Below, piece by piece: positions 2-64,000 of a stretch of 64,000 bases of DNA. This stretch comes from Spirochaetia bacterium (GTDB lineage: Bacteria > Spirochaetota > Spirochaetia > UBA9216). The notes under the pieces were generated by a model. The model did not search any database, was not told the origin of the DNA, and was given only the letters and a program-made list of their open reading frames with translations. Numbering within the stretch: position 1 is the stretch's first letter; each line of letters begins with the position of its first letter. The DNA is taken from assembly GCA_963675665.1 (NCBI GenBank), contig OY776510.1, positions 3,456,001 through 3,520,000 on the forward strand, in the 5' to 3' direction. Made by a program: the position numbers and the translations under genes.

Positions 2-1027
2 CTCGGCACAGGAATGGTTATAGATCCGGAAGCTCTTTTTAACGAGCTTGCAACAATTGAGAAACAGGGAATTAACTGGGAAAACAGAATATACATTTCC
101 GACAGGGCGCATCTTGTTCTTCCGCGATACCGCGAAGAAGACATAGAACTTGATAAAAATCGATCCAATCCAATCGGTACCACAGGACGCGGCATTGGAG
201 TTACATATGCGCATAAGGCTCATCGCGACGGAATAAGGGTAGGCGACCTTTACAATGAAAAACTGTATGCCGGCCTATCCGGCGACGACCGTGAATATCT
301 GGATCAGTACAAAGACAGAATGAAGGATATGGTTCTGGATCTATGTACTTTCATGGCTGAAAACAAAGGGAAACGAACGCTGTTTGAAGGAGCGCAGGGA
401 GTGCTTCTTGATCTTGATGTCGGAACTTATCCGTATGTCTCATCCGGATATTCCCAGGCTGCCGGGGCAGCGATGGGCGGGGGCATAGGACCAAGAAATA
501 TCGACGGCGTTCTCGGAGTTTTCAAGGCATATTCTACAAGGGTTGGAAATGGTCCGTTTCCTTCCGAGTTTCAGGACAACAGGGACGGCCAGCTTGAGAA
601 TTATATACGGGAAACAGGCCGGGAATACGGTGTTACGACCGGAAGGCCCAGAAGATGCGGCTACCTTGATTTGCCCGCGCTTAAATATGCCTGCAGGGTA
701 AATTCCCTGGATTCTCTTGTTCTTACGCACCTCGATGTCTATGACGAAATAAGCGAACTGAAAGCGTGTATAGCCTATGAATGCGACGGCGAACTTGTTG
801 AAAATTTTCCAGCCGATATTTCAGTTCTTGAAAATTCGGTTCCGGTAACAAAATCTTTTAAAGGCTGGAATAAAAGCCTTAAAGATATAAGAAACTATGA
901 AGACCTTCCGGCAGAAGCCAAAGAATATATAAAATTTATAGAAGATTACACTGAAACCCCGGTTGATATTGTTTCGATCGGATACAGACGCGAAGAAACC
1001 ATCCTTCGAAAAGATTTCTGGAAATAG
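2..1027 (+). CDS. purA: Adenylosuccinate synthetase (5'-truncated by window edge)
   Basis: Motifs IGTTGRGIG, FEGAQG, GTYPYVSS, EYGVTTGRPRRCG; frame open to window start. Confidence 0.97.
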   Translation, partial: LGTGMVIDPEALFNELATIEKQGINWENRIYISDRAHLVLPRYREEDIELDKNRSNPIGTTGRGIGVTYAHKAHRDGIRVGDLYNEKLYAGLSGDDREYLDQYKDRMKDMVLDLCTFMAENKGKRTLFEGAQGVLLDLDVGTYPYVSSGYSQAAGAAMGGGIGPRNIDGVLGVFKAYSTRVGNGPFPSEFQDNRDGQLENYIRETGREYGVTTGRPRRCGYLDLPALKYACRVNSLDSLVLTHLDVYDEISELKACIAYECDGELVENFPADISVLENSVPVTKSFKGWNKSLKDIRNYEDLPAEAKEYIKFIEDYTETPVDIVSIGYRREETILRKDFWK

Positions 1028-51783: not shown

Positions 51784-53889
51784 ATGACAAATAATAAGCC
51801 TCTTGAATTGGGGCCTGAAGGTGAATTTGAAAAGAAGAGGTTAAGCCGTCTTGTTAAGATTCAGCGAAGCGATAAAGCATTCTTTCTGCTTGCAAGCCAC
51901 AGCTATATAGAAAGCTGGCTTAGGCAGGCTCTTCACATGTGGGAAGACAGCTACTGCTTCAGGGACCTGATTTTTAAATTCAAGATAGAACTTATAGAAA
52001 ACTCGAAATCGTTTCCCAGTACACTTAATGTTCTTCAATCGCTTGCGGCAAAAGAAAAAACTGCAACTGTTATTAAGCAGAATTTTTCAGACATAACTCC
52101 TGAAGAGGCTTCTGCAGCTGCATACAGGCTTCTCCAGTTCTGTCATCTGGCCGACATAGACAATAATGAAGAACTTGAACAGATCGGTTCTGTTCTTAAA
52201 TCCTGGACAGACCGCAGCCTGATTCCTGAAGACGAAATTACAAAACTGCATCAGAAACTTGCCGTCAGCCAGCAGCGAAACAAAGAACTTCTTAATGAAA
52301 TTGAAAAGCTTAGAGAATATAAATCAAGAATTGCAGAACTTGAAACAGAAATAAGAACAATAAAACGGCAAAATTTCGGCGGGCAGGCACAGGACCTGGT
52401 TAACCGTATGGCTGAAATTGAAAAAAACAAAAAGGCAGATGAAAAAATAATTGAAACTCTTAAACCGGCTGATGATTATGTAATTAACCTGGAAAGGCTG
52501 ACAAGCTACACAAGAACAAGATTTGATTTTGAACGCGATATAACCAGGTTAACAGATGAGCAGCAGGAAGTTCTCGACTGCATCAACCTTAAAAACGACT
52601 TCCTGGTTAAAGGCGGGGCAGGAACAGGGAAAACTCTTGTACTTATTAAATCTCTGGAAAAAGCTCTGCAAATCAGTAATAATGAACTGGGTTTTTCAGA
52701 TTCTCCTCTGAAAATGAGTATGCTTACATACAACCGTACGCTTGCCAAGTACGACAGGTACCTGGCAGAACTCTTAAAACAGGAAGAAGATTCAGCTAAA
52801 ATCGAAACAATTGACAAATTTTTATACGACAGGCTGAGAAAGATTAATCCCGATTATAAAATTATTTTTGATGATGATTTTTTTATTAATCTTGTTAAGG
52901 AACATGTGATTTTAAACAATGAAACCGCATTTAGATATTTAAAAGAAATAGACGGATTAATTTACGCGTCTGATCTTTCAGAAGACGAGTATCTTAAAAC
53001 AACCGGAGTATTCAATAAGAAAGAAAGAAAAAAAATATGGGAAACAAGCGTTATTCTTGCTGAAAAGATGAAATCGATATCAACATATACCAAGAATTTC
53101 AGCAGAAGAATTATTCTTGACCATCTTGAAAAAAAACCTGAAGATGAAGAAATTCACGATACTGATTTCACATTCATAGATGAGGTACAGGACCTTACTG
53201 CTGCTGATATTAAAACGGTTAAAGCCTGTACCAGGCGTGCAATAATTATGGCAGGAGATTCGGACCAGGCGATTTATCAGAACGGTTTTTCATTTGCCCG
53301 TTCAGGCATTGATATACGGGGAACAACAAAAATACTCAGAACAAATTTCCGTAACAGTATCGAAATCCAGAAGACGGCATCTGCTTATACCGGAAAACCA
53401 TTTGAACACAGGGCATTCAGAACAGGACCTCCACCCGAAATGTATCTTGCAGATAATATCCAGGAAATAAATGATTTGATAGTTAAACGTGTGAGCTTGT
53501 TTTTAAACGAGCTTTGCTATGATCCTGAAAATGTTTGTATACTTGTTCCAAGCAGCCGAGATATTGAGCTGCTTCAGGACAGCCTTCAAAAAGCAGGTTA
53601 TGAAAGCCACGACCTAAGAGCCGACGGGTTCTCTTTCAAATCGCGCGGCGTTATACGCATATCAACAATGCATTCAAGCAAGGGCCTTGATTTTCCGGTT
53701 GTTCTGCTTAGCCTGCATACAGTACCGCAGGTAGCAGGAAAAACCGAAGAAGAAAAGGATCTTATGAGGGAAAATTTAATTTATGTTTCAATGACCCGTG
53801 CTATGGATCAACTGAATATTTTCTGCCTGAAAGATGAAAAAAATACAGAGATAAAAAAACTTATCTCTGTATTCAAAAAAACAAAATAA
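51784..53889 (+). CDS. UvrD/SF1-like helicase with unknown N-terminal domain and coiled coil
   Basis: GGAGTGKT, IDEVQD, GDSDQAIY, NFRNS, HSSKGLDF, YVSMTRA. Confidence 0.85.
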   Translation: MTNNKPLELGPEGEFEKKRLSRLVKIQRSDKAFFLLASHSYIESWLRQALHMWEDSYCFRDLIFKFKIELIENSKSFPSTLNVLQSLAAKEKTATVIKQNFSDITPEEASAAAYRLLQFCHLADIDNNEELEQIGSVLKSWTDRSLIPEDEITKLHQKLAVSQQRNKELLNEIEKLREYKSRIAELETEIRTIKRQNFGGQAQDLVNRMAEIEKNKKADEKIIETLKPADDYVINLERLTSYTRTRFDFERDITRLTDEQQEVLDCINLKNDFLVKGGAGTGKTLVLIKSLEKALQISNNELGFSDSPLKMSMLTYNRTLAKYDRYLAELLKQEEDSAKIETIDKFLYDRLRKINPDYKIIFDDDFFINLVKEHVILNNETAFRYLKEIDGLIYASDLSEDEYLKTTGVFNKKERKKIWETSVILAEKMKSISTYTKNFSRRIILDHLEKKPEDEEIHDTDFTFIDEVQDLTAADIKTVKACTRRAIIMAGDSDQAIYQNGFSFARSGIDIRGTTKILRTNFRNSIEIQKTASAYTGKPFEHRAFRTGPPPEMYLADNIQEINDLIVKRVSLFLNELCYDPENVCILVPSSRDIELLQDSLQKAGYESHDLRADGFSFKSRGVIRISTMHSSKGLDFPVVLLSLHTVPQVAGKTEEEKDLMRENLIYVSMTRAMDQLNIFCLKDEKNTEIKKLISVFKKTK

Positions 53890-55157: not shown

Positions 55158-55193
55158 TTGACAAAAAATAAACATGAGTACATAATTTTGTCA
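55158..55193 (+). promoter_or_regulatory. Putative recombinase promoter with overlapping inverted repeat
   Basis: TTGACA(55158-63)-17 bp-CATAAT(55181-86); tgacaaaa(55159-66)/ttttgtca(55186-93). Confidence 0.55.
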
Positions 55194-55200
55194 TTAAAAG

Positions 55201-56265
55201 ATGAATATAAAAATAACTTTAAAAAATGATGATTTAATTGAACTCACCTGTCCATATAATACAGAATTAATATCTGTAGTTAAAAAAATACCGGGAAGAA
55301 GGTGGCATCCGGACAGGAAGCTTTGGACATATCCTAATAAAGATAAAAATACCCAATACCTGCTTGAATATTTATATAAAACAGGCTCTTCTTATTACGA
55401 CAAACAGAAAAATCTGCAAAAGAACACTAATATAATTACACCTCTTGAAAAAACTGTAAGATATTTGAGACTGAAAGAATACAGCCCCAAAACAATCTAC
55501 ACCTATAAAAAACATATAAACTGGTTTTTCCGGAGAACCGGTTTGGAGCCGAAGGATGTCCGTACCGAAGATATAATTTTATATCTTGAAAAAATCAAAA
55601 ATGTTGCCGGATGCTCCAGAACTTATGCTGTTCAATGCATAAGCGCTCTGAAATGTTTTTACAGCCGGGGATTTGATTCGTGGTTCAATCCGGCTGACAA
55701 TATTCCGCTGCCTAAGAAAGATCATAAGTTTCCGGATATTCTTTCAAGAAAAGAAATCTCGGATATACTGGAAATAACCGCTAATATTAAACACAAGTTT
55801 TTAATATTATTGATCTATTCCGCCGGCCTGAGGGTAAGCGAAGCTGTCAATTTAAAAATAAACGATCTGGATTTTGACAGAAAAATGATTCATATCAGAT
55901 CAGGAAAAGGTAAAAAAGACAGGTATGTAATGTTATCGGAAAAAGCTGTAAAACTATATTTAGATTACAATAAGCAGGTAATGTTACAAAACTGGCTCTT
56001 CCCAGGTCAGGATTATAACTCTCATTTAAGCATACGATCAGCACAATCAGTATTTATCAGAGCAACTGAAAAAACTGAAATACAAAAAAAAGTCAGCATA
56101 CATTCATTACGTCATGCATTTGCTACACATCTACTTGAAGACGGTGTAGATTTAAGATACATACAGGAGCTTCTGGGGCATAAAAGCAGTAAAACAACAG
56201 AAATATATACCCATGTAACAAAAGTAAGTATAAACCGCCTGAAAAGCCCTATAGACAGATGGTAA
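55201..56265 (+). CDS. Tyrosine recombinase heading the cassette array; HARP-like N-terminus, SAM-like domain, no IntI-specific insertion
   Basis: GLRVSE, GKGKKDR, HSLRH, LLGH, TEIYTH catalytic set intact; PYNTELISVVKKIPGRRWHPDRKLW N-terminus. Confidence 0.9.
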   Translation: MNIKITLKNDDLIELTCPYNTELISVVKKIPGRRWHPDRKLWTYPNKDKNTQYLLEYLYKTGSSYYDKQKNLQKNTNIITPLEKTVRYLRLKEYSPKTIYTYKKHINWFFRRTGLEPKDVRTEDIILYLEKIKNVAGCSRTYAVQCISALKCFYSRGFDSWFNPADNIPLPKKDHKFPDILSRKEISDILEITANIKHKFLILLIYSAGLRVSEAVNLKINDLDFDRKMIHIRSGKGKKDRYVMLSEKAVKLYLDYNKQVMLQNWLFPGQDYNSHLSIRSAQSVFIRATEKTEIQKKVSIHSLRHAFATHLLEDGVDLRYIQELLGHKSSKTTEIYTHVTKVSINRLKSPIDRW

Positions 56266-56280
56266 CCAAAATTTTGAAGG

Positions 56281-56321
56281 GTTATATGCATGTTATACAT
56301 GAAGATAAATTGAAGTTGAGG
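56281..56321 (+). other. Putative attI site
   Basis: AGATAAA-TTGAA-GTTGAGG (56303-56321) has attI L-5bp-R spacing; GTTATAT/GTTATAC direct repeats at 56281/56292; gttgaggcga..tagc mirrors the end of cassette 1 (gctacatcgcctaac). Confidence 0.55.
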
Positions 56322-56357
56322 CGAAATAGCGAAATAAATAAAAATTGAGTTGGTTTA

Positions 56358-56675
56358 ATGAAAAAATATACAGGACATATTCCACCTTGTGGGATCTTTT
56401 GTGGAAGCTGTCCAAAATATAAAATTGATTGTGAAGGAGCAGAACATCATTGTAGTAGAGAAAATTGGGAAATGATTTATACATGTTGTGTTGAAAAAAA
56501 GAAATATAAATTTTGTTATGAATGTTATGACTATCCATGTTCATATTTCCACAATTTTTCAAAATCATGGCTTACTATTACAGACTCTAAAGATAATATT
56601 ATGGACAATCAAGTATTTATTAAAAATGATGGTCCTGAATATTTTTTGAAGAAAATGAATGAGAGGCTCAAATAA
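56358..56675 (+). CDS. Cassette 1: DUF3795-like Cys-rich protein
   Basis: PCGIFCGSCP, IYTCC..K...FCYEC..YPC. Confidence 0.78.
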   Translation: MKKYTGHIPPCGIFCGSCPKYKIDCEGAEHHCSRENWEMIYTCCVEKKKYKFCYECYDYPCSYFHNFSKSWLTITDSKDNIMDNQVFIKNDGPEYFLKKMNERLK

Positions 56676-56688
56676 TATATGCTACATC

Positions 56689-56786
56689 GCCTAACAAGCG
56701 AATATGAGGCTACGGTGACAAGCACCTTCGCCCAAATAAACCTCCCATTCGGTCGGTTTACTTCTCATATTCGCAGGACGTTAGAT
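56689..56786 (+). repeat. attC-like site 1 (98 bp)
   Basis: GCCTAAC-aa-gcgaatatgag...ctcatattcgc-aggac-GTTAGAT. Confidence 0.85.
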
Positions 56787-56856
56787 TGCAATTTCTGTCC
56801 TGGTTGGGATTATTTAAGGAAGAGCCCGCCTTCCGTGGCGGGCATGGAGATAAGAA

Positions 56857-57921
56857 ATGAATAATAAAGTATTATATTATCCAAGTATAGAATTTTATGA
56901 TGTTAGTTGGGTTAAAGCATCTCTATGTATTTGGGACAAAGTTTATAGAATTGTGCCTTCAACTTATATTCCCAATGATTGTTTAGAAATAGAAACATTT
57001 ATTAATCATGGACTAGTTGATAATATTAGTATTGAACAAAATGATTTATCAGAAACAGCTGATAATTTTATCGATTTTATTGAAAAAATACCAGGATTAC
57101 CTGCTGGCATTGAAGGATATGAAAAGATCAATTTGCACAAAGAAAAAGTAGATGATCGTATTCTGCCCATATTAGAAGCGATATCAGACAAATTTGAATT
57201 AGAATCATGGATACCTCTATCAAGACCGATAGTAAACGCTTACATGCTTTTTTTTGCAGAAACTATTTCAAGAAGAAGAAAAATGCCAAAGATTACTGAT
57301 AATGTCGACATGTATACAATAATGCATTATTTTATGGCAGATGGTAATATTGATGAATCAATAGGTTCACATGAACATAAAGAATATAGCATTAATCTTG
57401 TATTAGAAAATATTATACCAGCAGATATTAATACCGTATCACCTGAGATTATACTTAATTTCAGAGAAGCAACAGAAGATATTAGAGACACTTTTAGAAA
57501 CTATGTATATAATTTGATTGATGAAATAAAGTCTATTGAAAGTGAATCTTATGCAAAAGAAATAATAACTGATAGTATTTCTGATATTTCTAAAAATAAT
57601 TCATCGCAAAAAAGAGTTATTAAAGAATTAGGTATGAATTTCACTACATCATTTCTTTCAATAGGTATACCTACTACAATTTCGGCAATTGCACTTTTTT
57701 CAAATACAAATAATATATTTTCCATAAACGAAATAATGGGTTCAGTTTTCATTGGAGCAGTTGCGTCTATTGCAGATACAGTCCGCTCAAGAAGAAAAGA
57801 TTGGAGTTCAGAGGAATCACTTTTTATGCATGAATTAGATAGAAGATTTGATACTTATAGGAATTTCAGGCCAACAACTAATCGACATTTTAATATTTTA
57901 GAAGAATATATTAATGATTAA
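56857..57921 (+). CDS. Cassette 2 gene 1: DUF6236-like protein of unknown function
   Basis: LYYPSI...WVKASLCIWDKVYRIVP N-terminus; hydrophobic segments near C-terminus. Confidence 0.6.
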   Translation: MNNKVLYYPSIEFYDVSWVKASLCIWDKVYRIVPSTYIPNDCLEIETFINHGLVDNISIEQNDLSETADNFIDFIEKIPGLPAGIEGYEKINLHKEKVDDRILPILEAISDKFELESWIPLSRPIVNAYMLFFAETISRRRKMPKITDNVDMYTIMHYFMADGNIDESIGSHEHKEYSINLVLENIIPADINTVSPEIILNFREATEDIRDTFRNYVYNLIDEIKSIESESYAKEIITDSISDISKNNSSQKRVIKELGMNFTTSFLSIGIPTTISAIALFSNTNNIFSINEIMGSVFIGAVASIADTVRSRRKDWSSEESLFMHELDRRFDTYRNFRPTTNRHFNILEEYIND

Positions 57922-57952
57922 TAAAGTAAATAAAACTTAAAAGGAGCATAGC

Positions 57953-59515
57953 ATGTCAGAAAAACTAATTCTAGATGCATTAATTACAAGAGAAGATTTT
58001 GAAATCTCTGACGAATTAGATATACCCACAACAGATATGAAAGATACTTTGTCAATTCAAGATTTAGAATATAATTCTTTTTTCTATCGTGCATTAAGAA
58101 AGCCTGATTTTCAAAGAGAGACTAGTGATTGGACTATTGAAAAAACATTTCAATTTATTGAAAGTTTTATTAATGGAGATTTAATACCTGCAGTTATTTT
58201 GTGGAAAAATAGTTCAGGTTTAATATTTGTAATAGATGGTTCTCATCGAATCAGCGCTTTATCTTCATGGATAAATAACGACTATGGGGATGGTCGTTAT
58301 TCAATAGAATTTTATAATAATCAAATTTCAAACCAACAGAAAAAACAAGCCCAAACAGCAAGAACAATAATTGATGCTACAATAGGTTCATATGATTCAT
58401 ATAAAAATATTGATACAAATCTAAAAGAAGAAAATTTAACGAAATATAAAAAGGCGATGCAGTTAGGTTCTACAGCTATTCAAATTCAATGGGTAAAAGG
58501 TGATTCTAAAAAAGCAGAGGAGTCATTTTTTAAGATAAATGAAAAAGCTTCTCCAATTGATAATACTGAAAAGAAGATTATTAAAAATAGAAACAAACCA
58601 ATTGGGATAGCTGCAAGAGCAATCATGAGAAGTGGTAGTGGATATAGATATTGGTCCAAATTTGATAATAAAAGAAAAAATGAAGTTGAGCAGCTTGCAA
58701 AAGACATAAATGATATGCTTTTCTTACCAGAATATACAACCCCTATTAAAAGTTTAGATTTACCGATTGGCGGAAAGATCTTATCGAATAAAGGTTTAGC
58801 ACTAGTTCATGATACAATAATGATATGTAATAATTTAAATGAAAAAGAATTAGAGAGAATAGTGGATGACAATGATGGGATAAATACTGTTAAATACTTA
58901 AAACGAACAAAAAGACTTTTATTGAGGATTAATAGTCAACATCCAGGCTCTTTAGGATTACATCCAGTTATATATTTTTATTCAATACGTGGTGTTCATA
59001 AAGTAGCCTCATATTATGGAATACTTGATTTTATTAATTATATAGAAGAAACGAATAGGTACAACGATTTTATAGAAATACGCGAGAAGTTTGAAAGAAT
59101 CTTATTAGATTATGAATTCCTGATACAACAAATAGTACGTCATGATAGGCAATCTATAAATGGATATAAAAATATTAAGGAATATTATTCTTTAATTATG
59201 GACTATTTATTACAAGGTAAAGAGATTGAGGAAGTAATTAAAATGATTCTTGATACTAAGAAGTTTTCATATCTTTCTATTGCAATTACTAAAATGGAAG
59301 AAACTAAAGCTAAAAAATTCTCAAGAGATAAAAAATCGATAATTTTTATCAAGGAAGGTTTAAAAACAATTCCTAAATGTGGTATTTGTGGCGGGGCGTT
59401 ACATTCAAAATCGATATCAATTGATCATATAGAAAGAAAACAGGATGGTGGAATTTCAATGATAGATAATGGCCAATTATCACATCCATATTGTAATACA
59501 ACATATAAAAATTGA
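57953..59515 (+). CDS. Cassette 2 gene 2: DUF262 (GmrSD/ParB-like) plus C-terminal HNH nuclease
   Basis: PDFQRE..W, IPAVILW, VIDGSHR, FFKIN; CGICG...IDHIERKQDGG...NGQLSHPYCN. Confidence 0.82.
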   Translation: MSEKLILDALITREDFEISDELDIPTTDMKDTLSIQDLEYNSFFYRALRKPDFQRETSDWTIEKTFQFIESFINGDLIPAVILWKNSSGLIFVIDGSHRISALSSWINNDYGDGRYSIEFYNNQISNQQKKQAQTARTIIDATIGSYDSYKNIDTNLKEENLTKYKKAMQLGSTAIQIQWVKGDSKKAEESFFKINEKASPIDNTEKKIIKNRNKPIGIAARAIMRSGSGYRYWSKFDNKRKNEVEQLAKDINDMLFLPEYTTPIKSLDLPIGGKILSNKGLALVHDTIMICNNLNEKELERIVDDNDGINTVKYLKRTKRLLLRINSQHPGSLGLHPVIYFYSIRGVHKVASYYGILDFINYIEETNRYNDFIEIREKFERILLDYEFLIQQIVRHDRQSINGYKNIKEYYSLIMDYLLQGKEIEEVIKMILDTKKFSYLSIAITKMEETKAKKFSRDKKSIIFIKEGLKTIPKCGICGGALHSKSISIDHIERKQDGGISMIDNGQLSHPYCNTTYKN

Positions 59516-59658
59516 TAATTAATAAAAAATGTATTGGAATCATGAATTATCTACATGATTAATTTGAAAAGGAGTTAAGCATATAGAAAATGATTATAGG
59601 GTCAAATACATCCATGTATTTGACAATTAAGTATTAAAGCAACCATGAAAGAAACGGC

Positions 59659-59806
59659 ATCTAACAAGCAAATATGTAGCTCCGGCCATTCGGCCTGCGC
59701 CCAAATTGAAGCTAACGGAGAAGCGGAGCAGGACAGTCGGGTTTGCTCATTGACAAAACACTCCTTTGGCGGCGCTTCAACTTTACATATTCGCGGAACG
59801 TTATGT
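59659..59806 (+). repeat. attC-like site 2 (148 bp)
   Basis: ATCTAAC-aa-gcaaatatgta...tacatattcgc-ggaac-GTTATGT; internal ttgaagc/gcttcaa pairing. Confidence 0.85.
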
Positions 59807-59955
59807 GCAATTACCCCGCCCCTTTTTTGGGAGAAGAGATTGTATATAGGCAAACTGGCATCCGTGCCAGTTTGGAAATGTATAAACACACATCGCATCG
59901 CATAAAAAGGTGAGATTATAGAATTAAAATTTATTAGTATGCATAACAAGGAAGC

Positions 59956-60837
59956 ATGATAATGGAATGGTCTGAAAGAATGAATATGGCAATCGATTAT
60001 ATTGAAGATAATATTAAAAATGAGATACTGATTTCAGAAGTAGCAAATATAGCCAATTGTTCATCATTTCATTTTCAGCGAATGTTTTATGCAATCATTG
60101 GGATTACGCCTGCTGAATATATCAGACGACGAAGATTGACTTTAGCAGCCTCTGATCTCGCTGCTGGGAATGAAAAAGTCATTGATATTGCTCTGAAATA
60201 TGGTTATGAATCACCAAATGCGTTTACTAGAGCATTCCGGAATATGCATGGTATTAATCCACGAGAAGTGCGCAGCTCAGAGGTTAAATTATCGGCATAT
60301 AATCGTGTTTCTTTTCATATCGAAATCAAAGGAGGAAATGATATGGATTATAAAATAGTCGAAAAACCGTCTTTTGAATTGGTAGGGAAGAGTAAAAACT
60401 TTACACATGAAAACTTTTTTAAAGAAGGCCCTAAATTCTGGAAAGAATACGTATGTACAGATGAATACCAAGAGCTTTGGAATTTGACAAATGGTAGATG
60501 GGGAGAGGTGACTGATTCCCCTCTGATGTCTGTCTATTTGCCTAGTGAAAAAAATGATGAATCATTTATTGATATTCTTGGTGTTGAAAAGTCAGATAGT
60601 TTTAATAATCATAAATTTGAACTATTTCAGATACCAGCTGCTACCTATGCAGAATTTAATTGTACTTATCAGACTTCTGCAAAAATGAATAAATTTATTT
60701 ACGGTGAATGGCTTCCTTCAACCGGTTATGAAAGGGATACTCAAAAAGCTGATATTGCAGCTTATTTCCCAGTAGCTTTTATGTCAACAAAAGGGATGGG
60801 GGTACGATGGTGGATACCAGTGGTTAAGAGAAAGTGA
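59956..60837 (+). CDS. Cassette 3: AraC-family regulator with GyrI-like effector domain
   Basis: AIDYIEDN, FHFQRMF, YIRRRRLTLAA, YGYESPNAFTRAF; C-terminal YAEF..EWLP. Confidence 0.92.
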   Translation: MIMEWSERMNMAIDYIEDNIKNEILISEVANIANCSSFHFQRMFYAIIGITPAEYIRRRRLTLAASDLAAGNEKVIDIALKYGYESPNAFTRAFRNMHGINPREVRSSEVKLSAYNRVSFHIEIKGGNDMDYKIVEKPSFELVGKSKNFTHENFFKEGPKFWKEYVCTDEYQELWNLTNGRWGEVTDSPLMSVYLPSEKNDESFIDILGVEKSDSFNNHKFELFQIPAATYAEFNCTYQTSAKMNKFIYGEWLPSTGYERDTQKADIAAYFPVAFMSTKGMGVRWWIPVVKRK

Positions 60838-60909
60838 AAGAGATTTCAAGCAAAACATCGTGTTTTGCTTGAAGAATTCTCTTAAGAAAGACCGGGGCGG
60901 GGAAACTGC

Positions 60910-61001
60910 ATCTAACAAGGGTTACACGCTCCGGCCATTCGGCCTGCGGGCTGCGCCACATTCGGCTGCGCCGAACGTCGTGTAACCCTGGAACGTTATA
61001 C
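60910..61001 (+). repeat. attC-like site 3 (92 bp)
   Basis: ATCTAAC-aa-gggttacacg...cgtgtaaccc-tggaac-GTTATAC. Confidence 0.88.
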
Positions 61002-61079
61002 AAAATGTTCCCGCTAAGAGGAAGACGCCCGGACCTCCGGCCGACGGGCTAAAAGAGAGTTTAAGATTAAGGAATCAAG

Positions 61080-61859
61080 ATGGAAAAAGAGTTTACCGGA
61101 AATGAAATTGGATTAAATGGAGAAGCTCAAATAAAGATAGCTATCAAAACTATCTCTGATCTTGGTGGGAAAGCAGAAATGAAGGATTTATATTCTGCTT
61201 TAGAGAATGAAATGCGAGGAAAGAAACTCTCCAATCAAGGAAAGGCAAGTTTCAGATTTTTTGTGAATAAGGTCGCTGTAAAAGCAGGATTGATTTATCC
61301 GTATGACAAAAATAATCCGGGGTGGATGTTGACTCCGGCTGGTAAAGAATATCTGAAGAATGAAGAGATTAATGAAATAACAGTAAATACGGATACAAAT
61401 GAAGAAGAGGTAACTTTATCTAATTCGGCAAGAGGTTTAGCTTTTGAATTATACGCTCATGATTTTCTAAAGACATTATATCCAAGTTTTGTGTGGCATC
61501 ATCAGGGGCTTTATAAAACAACTGAAAGAGGTTTGGATTTTATAGGAGATAAACTTGGGGATCAAAATTCAGATGTTCGAACCATTGGTGTTCAGGTTAA
61601 GTTTCATAAAGAGAAAAATTCGCCAACTCAGATTGAATGGTTAAAATTTCTATCTGGTTGTTTTGCGCGCAGAGTAGATTTAGCAATATTTATCACAACA
61701 GGTAGATTGTCGAGTGCTCAATATCGAGAGGCGAGGGAATCAAATGTTATAGTTATTCAAGGAAAGGATGAGATAACAAGGATTGCAAAACAGAATAATT
61801 TAAAGAAGTTTGATTTATTTGGAAGTGAAGAGGAAGGAGAGGCTTCAGAAGAAGGATGA
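61080..61859 (+). CDS. Cassette 4: Mrr-like restriction endonuclease with N-terminal winged helix
   Basis: LGGKA...GWMLTPAGKEYL; FE..., ERGLD, VQVK, IFITTG. Confidence 0.8.
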   Translation: MEKEFTGNEIGLNGEAQIKIAIKTISDLGGKAEMKDLYSALENEMRGKKLSNQGKASFRFFVNKVAVKAGLIYPYDKNNPGWMLTPAGKEYLKNEEINEITVNTDTNEEEVTLSNSARGLAFELYAHDFLKTLYPSFVWHHQGLYKTTERGLDFIGDKLGDQNSDVRTIGVQVKFHKEKNSPTQIEWLKFLSGCFARRVDLAIFITTGRLSSAQYREARESNVIVIQGKDEITRIAKQNNLKKFDLFGSEEEGEASEEG

Positions 61860-61921
61860 AGAGTTAAGATGTTCAAGCCTTGACTCCGCCGTGCGGCTTG
61901 AACGAAGAGCGGGAACACTTC

Positions 61922-62013
61922 GTATAACAAGGGTTACACGCTCCGGCAATTCGGCCTGCGGGCTGCGCCACATTCGGTTGCGCCGAACGTCGTGTAACCC
62001 TGGAACGTTAGCT
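61922..62013 (+). repeat. attC-like site 4 (92 bp, near-identical to site 3)
   Basis: GTATAAC-aa-gggttacacg...cgtgtaaccc-tggaac-GTTAGCT. Confidence 0.88.
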
Positions 62014-62105
62014 GAAATGCCCCGCTAAGAGGAGAACGCCCGGACCTCCGGCCGACGGGCTAAACTGAATAGGAAATTAATAATAAATTAAAATATGGAG
62101 TTAGT

Positions 62106-62954
62106 ATGAAGAAGTTATCACTAGTATTTGTATTTCTAATAGCTGTGAGTAGTTTATATGCAGAGGATATAGCTTTAATTGAAGATAATGTGCTTGATTT
62201 ATTTAATAGTTACAATCCTCAATATAAAACAATTGGTCCAAAAATCTTGAATATCCCTGAAGGGCAAATTGATTTTTACAAAATGAAAATAGATACTGAT
62301 GAAAGTGATCTAAAATTCTTAGTAATTAAAGATAAGTACATTATAGGGGTCTTGCAAAATGTTAATGGTGAAGATCAACTTTTAATTGATGCAAATGGTG
62401 ATAATTTATTAGATTATTATTCTCAAGAATTAACAATACCTTATTGGGTTGTAGCATCAGAGTGTAATAATCACAGTAATAATGAATATAATTTGGATAT
62501 TTATTTTGATGAAGCTATTGAGATTTTTAATGGAGAGGTGAACCCATATTCATCCGGTTTGCATTATCAGTTTACGCAAAAATTATTAGTTTCAGTTTCA
62601 GCACCGGAAACTCCTAATCGAGATATAATTTACGCTTTATATGATTATTACAATCATGGCGACCAATATCCATGGGTTGCTTTACAAATAATTAATTATA
62701 TAAGCAAGACTACTTACGATAGATATAAAAAGGATAATCTATTATTTTACTTACATACTATGGAATCCTTAATTAATTTTGGATATTCAGATAGAGCGAT
62801 ACCATTGATGGAAGAGTTAGTAAAGAAATACCCAGAATTTATTCCAGGGTTAGTGTATAGATGGCAATTAGAAAATGATGCTTCGAAAAAGGAGAAATAT
62901 TATAAAGATCTAAAAACCAATTATCCAAATCATTGGATAGTGAAATTAATTTAA
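62106..62954 (+). CDS. Cassette 5: secreted protein of unknown function, possible Ca-binding loop and TPR-like C-terminus
   Basis: Signal peptide MKKLSLVFVFLIAVSSLYA; DANGDNLLD; helical C-terminus. Confidence 0.7.
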   Translation: MKKLSLVFVFLIAVSSLYAEDIALIEDNVLDLFNSYNPQYKTIGPKILNIPEGQIDFYKMKIDTDESDLKFLVIKDKYIIGVLQNVNGEDQLLIDANGDNLLDYYSQELTIPYWVVASECNNHSNNEYNLDIYFDEAIEIFNGEVNPYSSGLHYQFTQKLLVSVSAPETPNRDIIYALYDYYNHGDQYPWVALQIINYISKTTYDRYKKDNLLFYLHTMESLINFGYSDRAIPLMEELVKKYPEFIPGLVYRWQLENDASKKEKYYKDLKTNYPNHWIVKLI

Positions 62955-63034
62955 TGAAATATTATAGATTTGAAAACTTTGGTAGCCAGTCCTTGACTCC
63001 GTCGCACGGACTGGTTTAAGAGCGGGGACACTTC

Positions 63035-63342
63035 AGCTAACAAGGGAATATAAGCAGCGCCCATTCGGGCTTGGCCTTCGGCACATTTTTATTTTTCTGA
63101 ACATAGGCTTTATCATCGGCATTTAACACATGAAATGCAGTAGTCAACACCTTTGACACGGTTCTGGCGGAGACATTCGCTGATCGCTCATTCCAGAACC
63201 GCGCCAACCCTCGAAGACTCGGGACGGTTTCGCTACTGATTTCGTCGTTAAATGCACGGGATTTTTCAGTTTCGGGAAAATGATGGGTGTGATAGAATCA
63301 ATGAGAAAAATAAAAACGTCTTATATTCCCGGGGCGTTATGC
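63035..63342 (+). repeat. attC-like site 5, unusually long (308 bp)
   Basis: AGCTAAC-aa-gggaatataag...cttatattccc-ggggc-GTTATGC; inner pairing acatttttatttttct / agaaaaataaaaacgt. Confidence 0.75.
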
Positions 63343-63457
63343 GACATTCTTGGAGGAAGAAGATAGAAACATTGTTTGGGATGATTTTGATAGTTTTTAG
63401 CATTTTACTCATTAAAAATTATTTTATTTCATATGGAAGGGCTATAAATAAATTCCG

Positions 63458-63466
63458 TGATATAAT
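63458..63466 (+). promoter_or_regulatory. Extended -10 promoter candidate inside cassette 6
   Basis: TG-A-TATAAT about 110 bp upstream of the Rhs-core ORF. Confidence 0.4.
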
Positions 63467-63576
63467 GTTATTTACAGTTTTAAATGCTGTAATTGAATTC
63501 TCAAGCAAGATCAACCAACTTGTTTTTAGGAACTTTACGCAGAAATTTAAGATTGAATTAAAAATAAAGGACGAAC

Positions 63577-64000
63577 ATGAATTCTACAGGCCAATATTAC
63601 TACAATGCCAGATGGTATGACCTAAATCTGGGTAGGTTTACCACAGAAGACCCGATAAGCGACGGCCTAAACTGGTACGCTTACGCTAATAATAATCCGC
63701 TGAGGTTTGTTGATCCGACCGGGTTAATAGATGTTGAATCTGATATAGTTGAAACGGAAACATACGTCGATGTTGATACTGATTCTCTCATGACTGGTGA
63801 TCCTATGGATATCTTTGATGATCCAGAAGTTGCAAAAGCTGATACTTTAGCTCAATTAGAAGATGTAGTAGATGAAACTGTAGAAATGATTTCCTTTACT
63901 ACCACTTTGGGTGGACTTTTGCCAGATGAAGAAGTTTCAACCACATTATTTTTTATTGGTGTAGGGACCGACCTTTATTCTACCCTTGTCTCTGAGGATA
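63577..64000 (+). CDS. Cassette 6: orphan Rhs repeat-associated core plus variable C-terminal domain (3'-truncated by window edge), not in ORF track
   Basis: MNSTGQYYYNARWYDLNLGRFTTEDPISDGLNWYAYANNNPLRFVDPTGL-IDVESD...; AAAGGA upstream; no stop before 64000. Confidence 0.88.
   Translation, partial: MNSTGQYYYNARWYDLNLGRFTTEDPISDGLNWYAYANNNPLRFVDPTGLIDVESDIVETETYVDVDTDSLMTGDPMDIFDDPEVAKADTLAQLEDVVDETVEMISFTTTLGGLLPDEEVSTTLFFIGVGTDLYSTLVSED

Follow-up and report, generated by a model that had tools for sequence, protein, structure and literature searches.

A HARP-domain Xer-like recombinase as the probable integrase of a spirochaetal cassette array: a candidate second class of integron

Which enzyme builds a cassette array that is not headed by an integron integrase (IntI)? 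The question is raised by a locus in a 64,000-nt stretch of a Spirochaetia genome (the window: assembly GCA_963675665.1, contig OY776510.1, positions 3,456,001 to 3,520,000), where a tyrosine recombinase with a HARP-like N-terminal domain, here called HARP-Xer, is followed by an attI-like site and a series of attC-like sites (Table 1). We conclude that HARP-Xer is probably the array's own integrase and that the locus represents a second class of integron. The best explanation of the sequence is a sedentary chromosomal, integron-like platform for gene capture, whose integrase would be the co-oriented HARP-Xer and not a canonical IntI; that such systems form a separate class appears well supported. 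This reading is based on the anatomy of the locus, linkage across genomes, recombination footprints, segregation of site types and a strand bias in folding. An initial annotation of the same DNA had proposed that an insertion-less recombinase with a HARP-like domain heads a cassette system, a proposal supported by the anatomy, the linkage and the failure of IntI profiles to detect the enzyme.

HARP-Xer matched the Pfam families Phage_integrase (PF00589, 7.8e-42) and Phage_int_SAM_4 (7.5e-12), the latter in its N-terminal SAM-like core-binding domain. The residues R211, K236, H301, R304, H327 and Y336 were invariant in an alignment of 21 homologues, which bears out the full R-K-HxxR-H-Y set listed initially. 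Equally correct was the report of 23 residues between KDR (239-241) and WLFP (265-268) in the translation, without the I2 helix and its ALxRKYP motif; the same interval spans 54 residues, ALCRKYP included, in a canonical IntI encoded by the same genome. The integron integrase profile TIGR02249 gave 190.8 bits, below its cut-off of 265, so IntI-specific profiles would miss this recombinase, as had been anticipated. The match was split between model positions 4-169 and 235-314, and the sequence of VchIntIA (2a3v) likewise aligned in two pieces, with chain residues 184-239 skipped. NF040815 (XerA) gave 220 bits, exactly its cut-off, over residues 86-344 alone, with the N-terminal domain outside the model. 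Among PDB chains, the best sequence match was XerA 4a8e (6.8e-37). The full-length AlphaFold model, built with 21 sequences, had a predicted local distance difference test score (pLDDT) of 83.6 and showed a beta-beta-alpha-beta-beta-alpha arrangement for residues 1-61, then a disordered linker and two recombinase domains. Its top structural matches in the PDB were VchIntIA 2a3v (1.4e-16), the best, and XerA 4a8e (7.8e-16). By profile and PDB scores, which are the only basis for this placement, HARP-Xer falls between Xer and IntI.

Directly downstream of the gene is the attI-like site, now marked by a conserved motif, a synteny break and a cassette junction at GTT. The motif GGGTTATATGCATGTTATACATG was conserved in four of five aligned species (G000, the genome of the window, and G006, G003 and G002); no clear counterpart was seen in the fifth, G009. 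The conserved 3' flank of the gene reads GGGTTATATGCAyGwTATaC ... GAGTT. Between G002 and G003, 95% colinearity runs from the upstream flank across the gene and ends 68 nt past the stop codon; beyond this point the two match only in shuffled cassettes and attC repeats. In four of five species, the point of insertion was 50-70 nt beyond the stop codon of HARP-Xer. In G003, a cassette of ~480 nt is found immediately after attI and after each of three different attC sites, and G002 has a further copy; the homology of this cassette starts with the GTT of the upstream site and ends with the ACGTTAT of its own attC. Such boundaries are what attI x attC and attC x attC exchange at G/TT leaves behind (the slash marks the exchange point). 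The synteny break and the cassette copies thus give this locus what is expected of an integron platform, an attI adjoining the recombinase and cassettes inserted at G/TT. Crossover in R'', with the attC upstream of its gene, was ruled out, as each recurrent cassette begins at the upstream GTT and terminates at its own R'. By alignment, crossover in the window would fall between G56315 and T56316. The junction GAGTTAT is conserved in a second spirochaetal family, f20. In one f20 genus, two genomes stay colinear through the gene and are unrelated beyond it; the attI junction ends in GAGTTAT, and these genomes carry 180-nt sites with the same loop asymmetry as the A sites described below.

The five attC-like sites counted initially were all recovered, on the plus strand and delimiting cassettes, and the array extends to about genome position 3529142, ~9 kb past the window end. 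All five are imperfect palindromes of the form R''-L''...L'-R' that fold as single strands, the bottom strands folding into an R box, an internal loop and an L stem. A pattern scanner found 44 matches on both strands of the 5.15 Mb genome, so that ~0.07 would be expected in 8.8 kb; it found 4 in the 8.8 kb of the locus, or 5 with long loops allowed. In the strict scan of the genome, the window array was the sole cluster of at least three sites. The scanner was used in place of a covariance model because four attC sites aligned by MAFFT had their L boxes out of register, so that RNAalifold detected no more than an inner helix of 6 pairs. An Rfam search returned a single match at E <= 0.1, a chance-level snoRNA below the gathering score.

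Two site architectures were distinguished. A sites (26 parsed) consist of TAAC, 2-3 nt, an L stem of 9-11 bp without a bulge, 5-6 nt (GGAAC or GGGAC) and GTTA. B sites (12 of 13 parsed) consist of TAAC, 4 nt, GATTTG[G]AGTAG (the bracketed G extrahelical), 3 nt and GTTA, which is the classical integron design. A bulge within the first 9-11 bp of the L stem was present in 0/26 A sites, and one extrahelical G in 12/13 B sites of the canonical array, so this hallmark of integron attC sites is absent from the A type. When sites were classified by BLAST, the HARP-Xer arrays of five genomes held 33 A and 7 B sites, and those headed by canonical IntI, in the three genomes with sufficient sequence, had 1 A and 15 B. 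In alignments, all 7 B sites of the HARP-Xer arrays were nested inside long A-type shells. Genome-wide in G000, the HARP-Xer array has 9 A sites plus one nested B, and the IntI array 47 B and no A. Site architecture, with the classical extrahelical base in B and none in A, thus appears to keep the two systems largely separate. The arrays of G000 and G002 share a 702-nt stretch that is 96.7% identical, though their recombinases are only 53% identical, which suggests that the two arrays have recently exchanged cassette DNA.

A sites also show the strand asymmetry expected of folded substrates. The bottom strand was the more stable in 24/25 distinct A sites (mean -20.5 versus -16.2 kcal/mol on top), and G-T pairs were commoner there (61 versus 15 for the top strand). 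L stems vary in sequence from site to site while their complementarity is kept. Together, these features point to a folded bottom-strand substrate, despite the absence of I2.

Composite sites of ~310 nt were also seen: an A-type outer hairpin, with a ACATTTTTATTTT/AAAATAAAAACGT stem, encloses a complete B site plus ~70 nt. Seven copies were seen in three genomes, all in HARP-Xer arrays (in this genome at window positions 63035-63342 and genome positions 3522719-3522899; elsewhere at loci L102 and L101). Such nesting is not a product expected of standard G/TT exchange. Composite sites could be readable by both recombinases.

The initial annotation had allowed that a canonical intI elsewhere might serve the array. 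Such a gene exists, 1 Mb away (4525383-4526315, plus strand; 392 bits with TIGR02249), but it heads a sedentary chromosomal integron of its own with a different site architecture: at least 47 B sites, ~135-140 nt long, on the minus strand and divergent from intI, over ~106 kb (4417887-4524340). The strict, A-type scanner found no sites beside this gene; BLAST of repeats then revealed the B sites there. Because intI has its own array of another architecture, and because IntI is missing from 108 of the 110 Spirochaetota genomes with HARP-Xer described below, the canonical gene does not appear to account for the HARP-Xer array. An in-frame TAG (4525266-4525268) interrupts the G000 intI at codon 69 of 421, in a frame that is intact in a relative, and the intI of G006 is frameshifted; in both, sequencing error is possible. 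Both classes of integron coexist in this genome, with distinct site grammars and a few hybrid sites. A 29-kb stretch of the canonical array (4448013-4477446) has no detected sites. Canonical IntI proteins of G009 and G002 (L107, L108) are ~420 aa long with an N-terminal extension of ~100 aa, inside which the G000 stop falls; by eye, with no profile scan made, no HARP motif was seen in it. A third cluster on the minus strand (genome 3906592-3922960) comprises three A sites and one B site. A tblastn search with the HARP-Xer protein found no tyrosine recombinase within 3900000-3935000, and the cluster is, on this evidence, an orphan array.

Homologues of HARP-Xer proved to be linked to arrays, a check that the initial annotation had proposed. 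An orthologue (41-63% identity) was present in 9/10 other genomes of the family, and in 4/4 with enough downstream DNA it was followed by co-oriented attC sites (3, 4, 6 and 1 strict matches). We then surveyed an even set of 401 Spirochaetota genomes, defining HARP-Xer as a full-length homologue at E <= 1e-55. HARP-Xer was found in 110 and IntI over the cut-off in 42; comparison of the two lists showed both in only two genomes, G000 and G310. Family f20 had HARP-Xer in 62/75 genomes and IntI in 0/75, with arrays of 13, 9 and 7 strict sites in three of them, and family f2 had IntI in 20/50 and HARP-Xer in 0/50. Across 20 Spirochaetota loci from ten families, 40 strict sites lay downstream on the strand of the gene and 1 elsewhere. 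At least one strict site was found in 9 of the 14 loci with >=2 kb of downstream sequence. In a second phylum, reached via a Firmicutes-titled record, 23/301 genomes had the gene; strict sites occurred at 6 of 10 loci, with 11 located downstream on the strand of the gene and none elsewhere. A contig search listed at least 79 loci with distant relatives in the 30-45% identity class, among them an Ignavibacteriota genome with nine sites directly behind an insertion-less relative. No IntI over the cut-off was found in any of 10 tested distant genomes with HARP-Xer relatives. Eight of the 20 Spirochaetota contigs end 0.1-2.4 kb after HARP-Xer (L120, L121, L124-L126, L128, L129 and L136), as do several second-phylum contigs. 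This is as expected where repeats break assemblies, so surveys of draft genomes would undercount these arrays.

The N-terminal segment had been described initially as HARP-like, and HARP (PF07443) indeed matched residues 15-48 at 27.5 bits, over the gathering score of 25. The Pfam match was present at E <= 0.01 in 9/21 family members. Modelled alone (22 sequences), the domain had a pLDDT of 88.9, and its top Foldseek match in the PDB was the HARP domain of SMARCAL1 (4o66), with a probability of 0.91 but an E of 0.1. An exhaustive aligner favored the N-terminal domain of T4 UvsW (Z 6.0), then archaeal XPB (Z 5.2) and 4o66 (Z 4.3), all under the level that it treats as clear. The N-terminal domains of HARP proteins, UvsW and XPB have been grouped as one class of structure-specific DNA binders. 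The domain resembles SMARCAL1 HARP in its above-cut-off Pfam match, its predicted beta-beta-alpha-beta-beta-alpha fold and its top Foldseek match, yet the structural likeness is weak (E 0.1, Z 4.3) and ours is a predicted domain model; moreover, HARP in SMARCAL1 is fused to an SNF2 motor, here to a recombinase. The HARP-like domain may take the place of I2 as the reader of the folded site, consistent with A sites having no extrahelical base. In Bacteroidota-titled relatives L017, L020, L025 and L026, two or three tandem HARP-like modules precede the recombinase core (range in Bacteroidota relatives, one to three).

We propose that HARP-Xer would recombine attI, just after its own stop codon, with the folded single-stranded bottom strand of an A-type attC. 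The enzyme would recognize the A architecture (R box, asymmetric internal loop of 2-3 x 5-6 nt, L stem of 9-11 bp without an extrahelical base) and exchange strands at G/TT, as in integrons. Catalysis by HARP-Xer on these sites, with single-strand substrates, is what we infer from sequence. More tentatively, HARP-Xer platforms may be an independent, ancient, cross-phylum lineage of integrons, in which a HARP/SRD-type junction-binding domain does the job of I2 and the asymmetric loop replaces extrahelical bases, the two classes coexisting here and composite A(B) sites allowing the transfer of cassettes between the two; we regard this wider scenario as possible rather than likely.

Several observations weigh against assigning the array to HARP-Xer. 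Canonical IntI is present in 8/11 genomes of the window's family, which makes action in trans possible for this genome. There is some cross-traffic between the systems: a single A site is located in the IntI array of G002, and B cores are nested in A shells within HARP-Xer arrays. The additional domain of IntI is necessary for its activity according to Messier and Roy 2001, as cited in the available portion of PMC9668308. No strict site was found in 5 of the 14 loci (L127, L129, L132, L133 and L134), although direct repeats are nonetheless present in L129 and L134. The scanner was modelled on the sites of this window and finds only the A architecture, missing B sites. Related genomes are non-independent samples, some f20 genomes contain N stretches, and some sampled genomes are metagenome-assembled and of uncertain completeness. 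One could picture the array as a CALIN (cluster of attC sites lacking integron integrases), made and serviced in trans by a canonical IntI, resident or foreign, next to a conserved HARP-Xer that has a different function, for instance dimer resolution or stabilization of the array. In addition to the 392-bit intI, its frequency in the family and the A site in G002, this idea draws on the available part of Cury et al. 2016 (PMC4889954), where this conclusion was drawn for 29 of 50 comparable cases, those with IntI elsewhere in the genome, and on the accessible text of Ghaly et al. 2022 (PMC9668308), by which CALIN cassettes can be mobilized in trans. Yet 108 of 110 HARP-Xer genomes, several with large arrays, have no IntI over the cut-off. 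Further, the insertion point tracks the HARP-Xer stop codon in 4/5 species, A and B sites segregate by recombinase, the G000 intI carries an in-frame stop, and two separate Xer-like genes at 3.98 Mb are available for housekeeping. We consider service in trans improbable.

Alternatively, HARP-Xer could be the cassette integrase but act in Xer fashion, carrying out two strand exchanges on duplex sites. The I2 segment, which contacts extrahelical bases, is missing from it, A sites lack those bases, its best sequence matches are XerA, and integron integrases are themselves hybrid systems that recombine single- and double-stranded partners (PMC4792948, excerpt). Duplex sites do not readily explain why the bottom strand folds better in 24/25 A sites, with G-T pairs fourfold commoner there, or why L stems covary; and Xer enzymes without I2 use a folded single strand in CTX phage integration (PMC3442271, excerpt). 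This mode of action seems to us improbable. As for the N-terminal domain, it might not read folded sites but be an accessory or arm-type module that binds DNA, such as the GTTATAT/GTTATAC repeats of attI, or contacts protein. Lambda Int binds arm sites. GTTATA direct repeats are present in the attI region, the alignment of full-length lambda Int chains with the HARP-Xer model spans 354-357 columns, and the fold matches of the isolated domain are weak (Z 6.0 at most). Set against this are the Pfam match above the cut-off, the ranking of 4o66 first by Foldseek with UvsW and XPB next, and the one to three tandem copies in Bacteroidota relatives, and we find an arm-type role, though a serious alternative, less likely than not.

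With HARP-Xer as the integrase, the platform shares much with classical integrons: a tyrosine recombinase adjoining attI, same-strand cassettes, imperfect-palindrome attC sites with RYYYAAC...GTTRRRY boxes, G/TT crossover, a bottom-strand folding bias and cassette turnover between relatives. It differs in that HARP-Xer lacks the I2/patch III insertion (23 versus 54 residues), has an N-terminal HARP-like domain, scores below the TIGR02249 cut-off and is encoded in the cassettes' orientation, and in that A-type attC sites have the 2-3 x 5-6 nt asymmetric loop in place of an extrahelical base. The XerA and XerC-XerD group (NF040815; 4a8e, 5hxy) includes its best sequence matches, to XerA, and also lacks I2, but HARP-Xer has the extra domain and the linkage to cassette arrays. 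For exchange of one strand pair, the Xer-mediated integration of folded single-stranded CTX phage DNA offers a precedent (available part of PMC3442271). The inverted-integrase integrons of Treponema have canonical IntI enzymes found by IntI-specific profiles, unlike HARP-Xer (PMC3607928 and PMC4889954, both in excerpt). In our survey, Treponema-type IntI occurs in families mostly without HARP-Xer (f2), and the canonical IntI of the window's genome is divergent from its own array.

The accessible portion of Cury et al. 2016 (PMC4889954) reports 50 recombinases adjoining attC sites that matched PF00589 only, 29 of them in genomes with IntI elsewhere, and judged them not to be IntI. The additional domain is treated as defining and necessary for IntI in the excerpted text of Ghaly et al. 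2022 (PMC9668308), and Treponema is the sole spirochaete clade found with integrons in that of Wu et al. 2013 (PMC3607928). In the full-text literature, a body that leaves subscription journals outside coverage, we found no publication that describes attC arrays headed by integrases fused to HARP or lacking the insertion. Both the detection and the theory of integrons depend on the IntI-specific domain; arrays lacking it are filed as CALINs, and whole phyla are scored as integron-free. If HARP-Xer is a genuine integrase, gene capture at folded sites would be more widespread than surveys show (110/401 Spirochaetota genomes, plus the Firmicutes-titled phylum), the necessity of I2 would not be general, and the integrase of many CALINs may have been overlooked. 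This genome is, in effect, a natural specificity experiment, with two recombinases, two site architectures, two arrays and a few hybrid sites, in which folded-site recognition is directly testable.

Table 1. Features of the HARP-Xer platform (window coordinates unless stated)
Feature	Position	Strand	Description
Sigma-70-like promoter match	55158-55186	+	TTGACA-17-CATAAT; 11/12 consensus; 15 nt upstream of recombinase start
HARP-Xer open reading frame (ORF)	55201-56265	+	Tyrosine recombinase, 354 aa
HARP-Xer layout	residues 1-61 / 82-158 / 181-341		HARP-like domain / SAM-like core-binding domain / catalytic domain without IntI I2 insertion
attI-like site	56266-56322	+	Motif at 56279-56301; putative crossover G56315/T56316 within GAAGTT
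Cassette 1	56316-56780	+	DUF3795 protein, ORF 56358-56675; attC1
attC1	56689-56786	+	Bottom-strand fold z = -4.55
Cassette 2	56781-59800	+	Two genes: DUF6236-like, 56857-57921; GmrSD_N/DUF262-HNH nuclease, 57953-59515; attC2
attC2	59659-59806	+	Bottom-strand fold z = -0.82
Cassette 3	59801-60995	+	AraC-type helix-turn-helix plus Cass2/GyrI-like regulator, 59956-60837; attC3
attC3	60910-61001	+	Bottom-strand fold z = -4.14
Cassette 4	60996-62007	+	Mrr_cat restriction-endonuclease-like protein, 61080-61859; attC4
attC4	61922-62013	+	Bottom-strand fold z = -2.38
Cassette 5	62008-63336	+	282-aa protein with hydrophobic N-terminus, 62106-62954; attC5
attC5, composite	63035-63342	+	A-type outer shell; B-type site nested at 63121-63250
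Cassette 6, start	63337-64000, continuing beyond window end	+	ORF from 63577; attC at genome 3520761-3520901
Hairpin leader	61005-61060; 62017-62070		Similar at 56800-56850 and in first cassette of L102
Outer helix, attC3	60885-60909 with 61002-61025		Beyond R boxes
Outer helix, attC4	61905-61921 with 62014-62030		Beyond R boxes

The promoter candidate of Table 1 is a consensus match only, one of 7 sigma-70-like matches in the region where 10.3 were expected from shuffles. No terminator-like site was found between the recombinase gene and cassette 1. The candidate is possibly common to the recombinase and the cassettes, which probably depend on the recombinase promoter for their expression. 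A flank conserved with relatives encodes, two genes upstream of the platform, a 701-aa UvrD-type helicase (51784-53889, plus strand) that matched the GajB and NERD+UvrD models of PADLOC (1.6e-18). PADLOC also matched the nuclease of cassette 2 to NsnA (2.6e-8). The cassette 6 ORF had no Pfam match; from its sequence it looks like the end of an RHS-type core (...YYYNARWYDLNLGRFTTEDP...DPTGL) with a variable C-terminus, which would make it an orphan polymorphic-toxin tip borne on a cassette.

Several unrelated cassettes carry at their 5' end, just before the ribosome-binding site, a G+C-rich hairpin leader (...AAGAGGAAGACGCCCGGACCTCCGGCCGACGGGC...), for which Rfam gave no match at E <= 0.1. Finally, attC3 and attC4 have an extra outer helix beyond the R boxes, GCGGGAA/TTCCCGC and AGCGGG/CCCGCT, respectively, which places the R box inside a longer hairpin.

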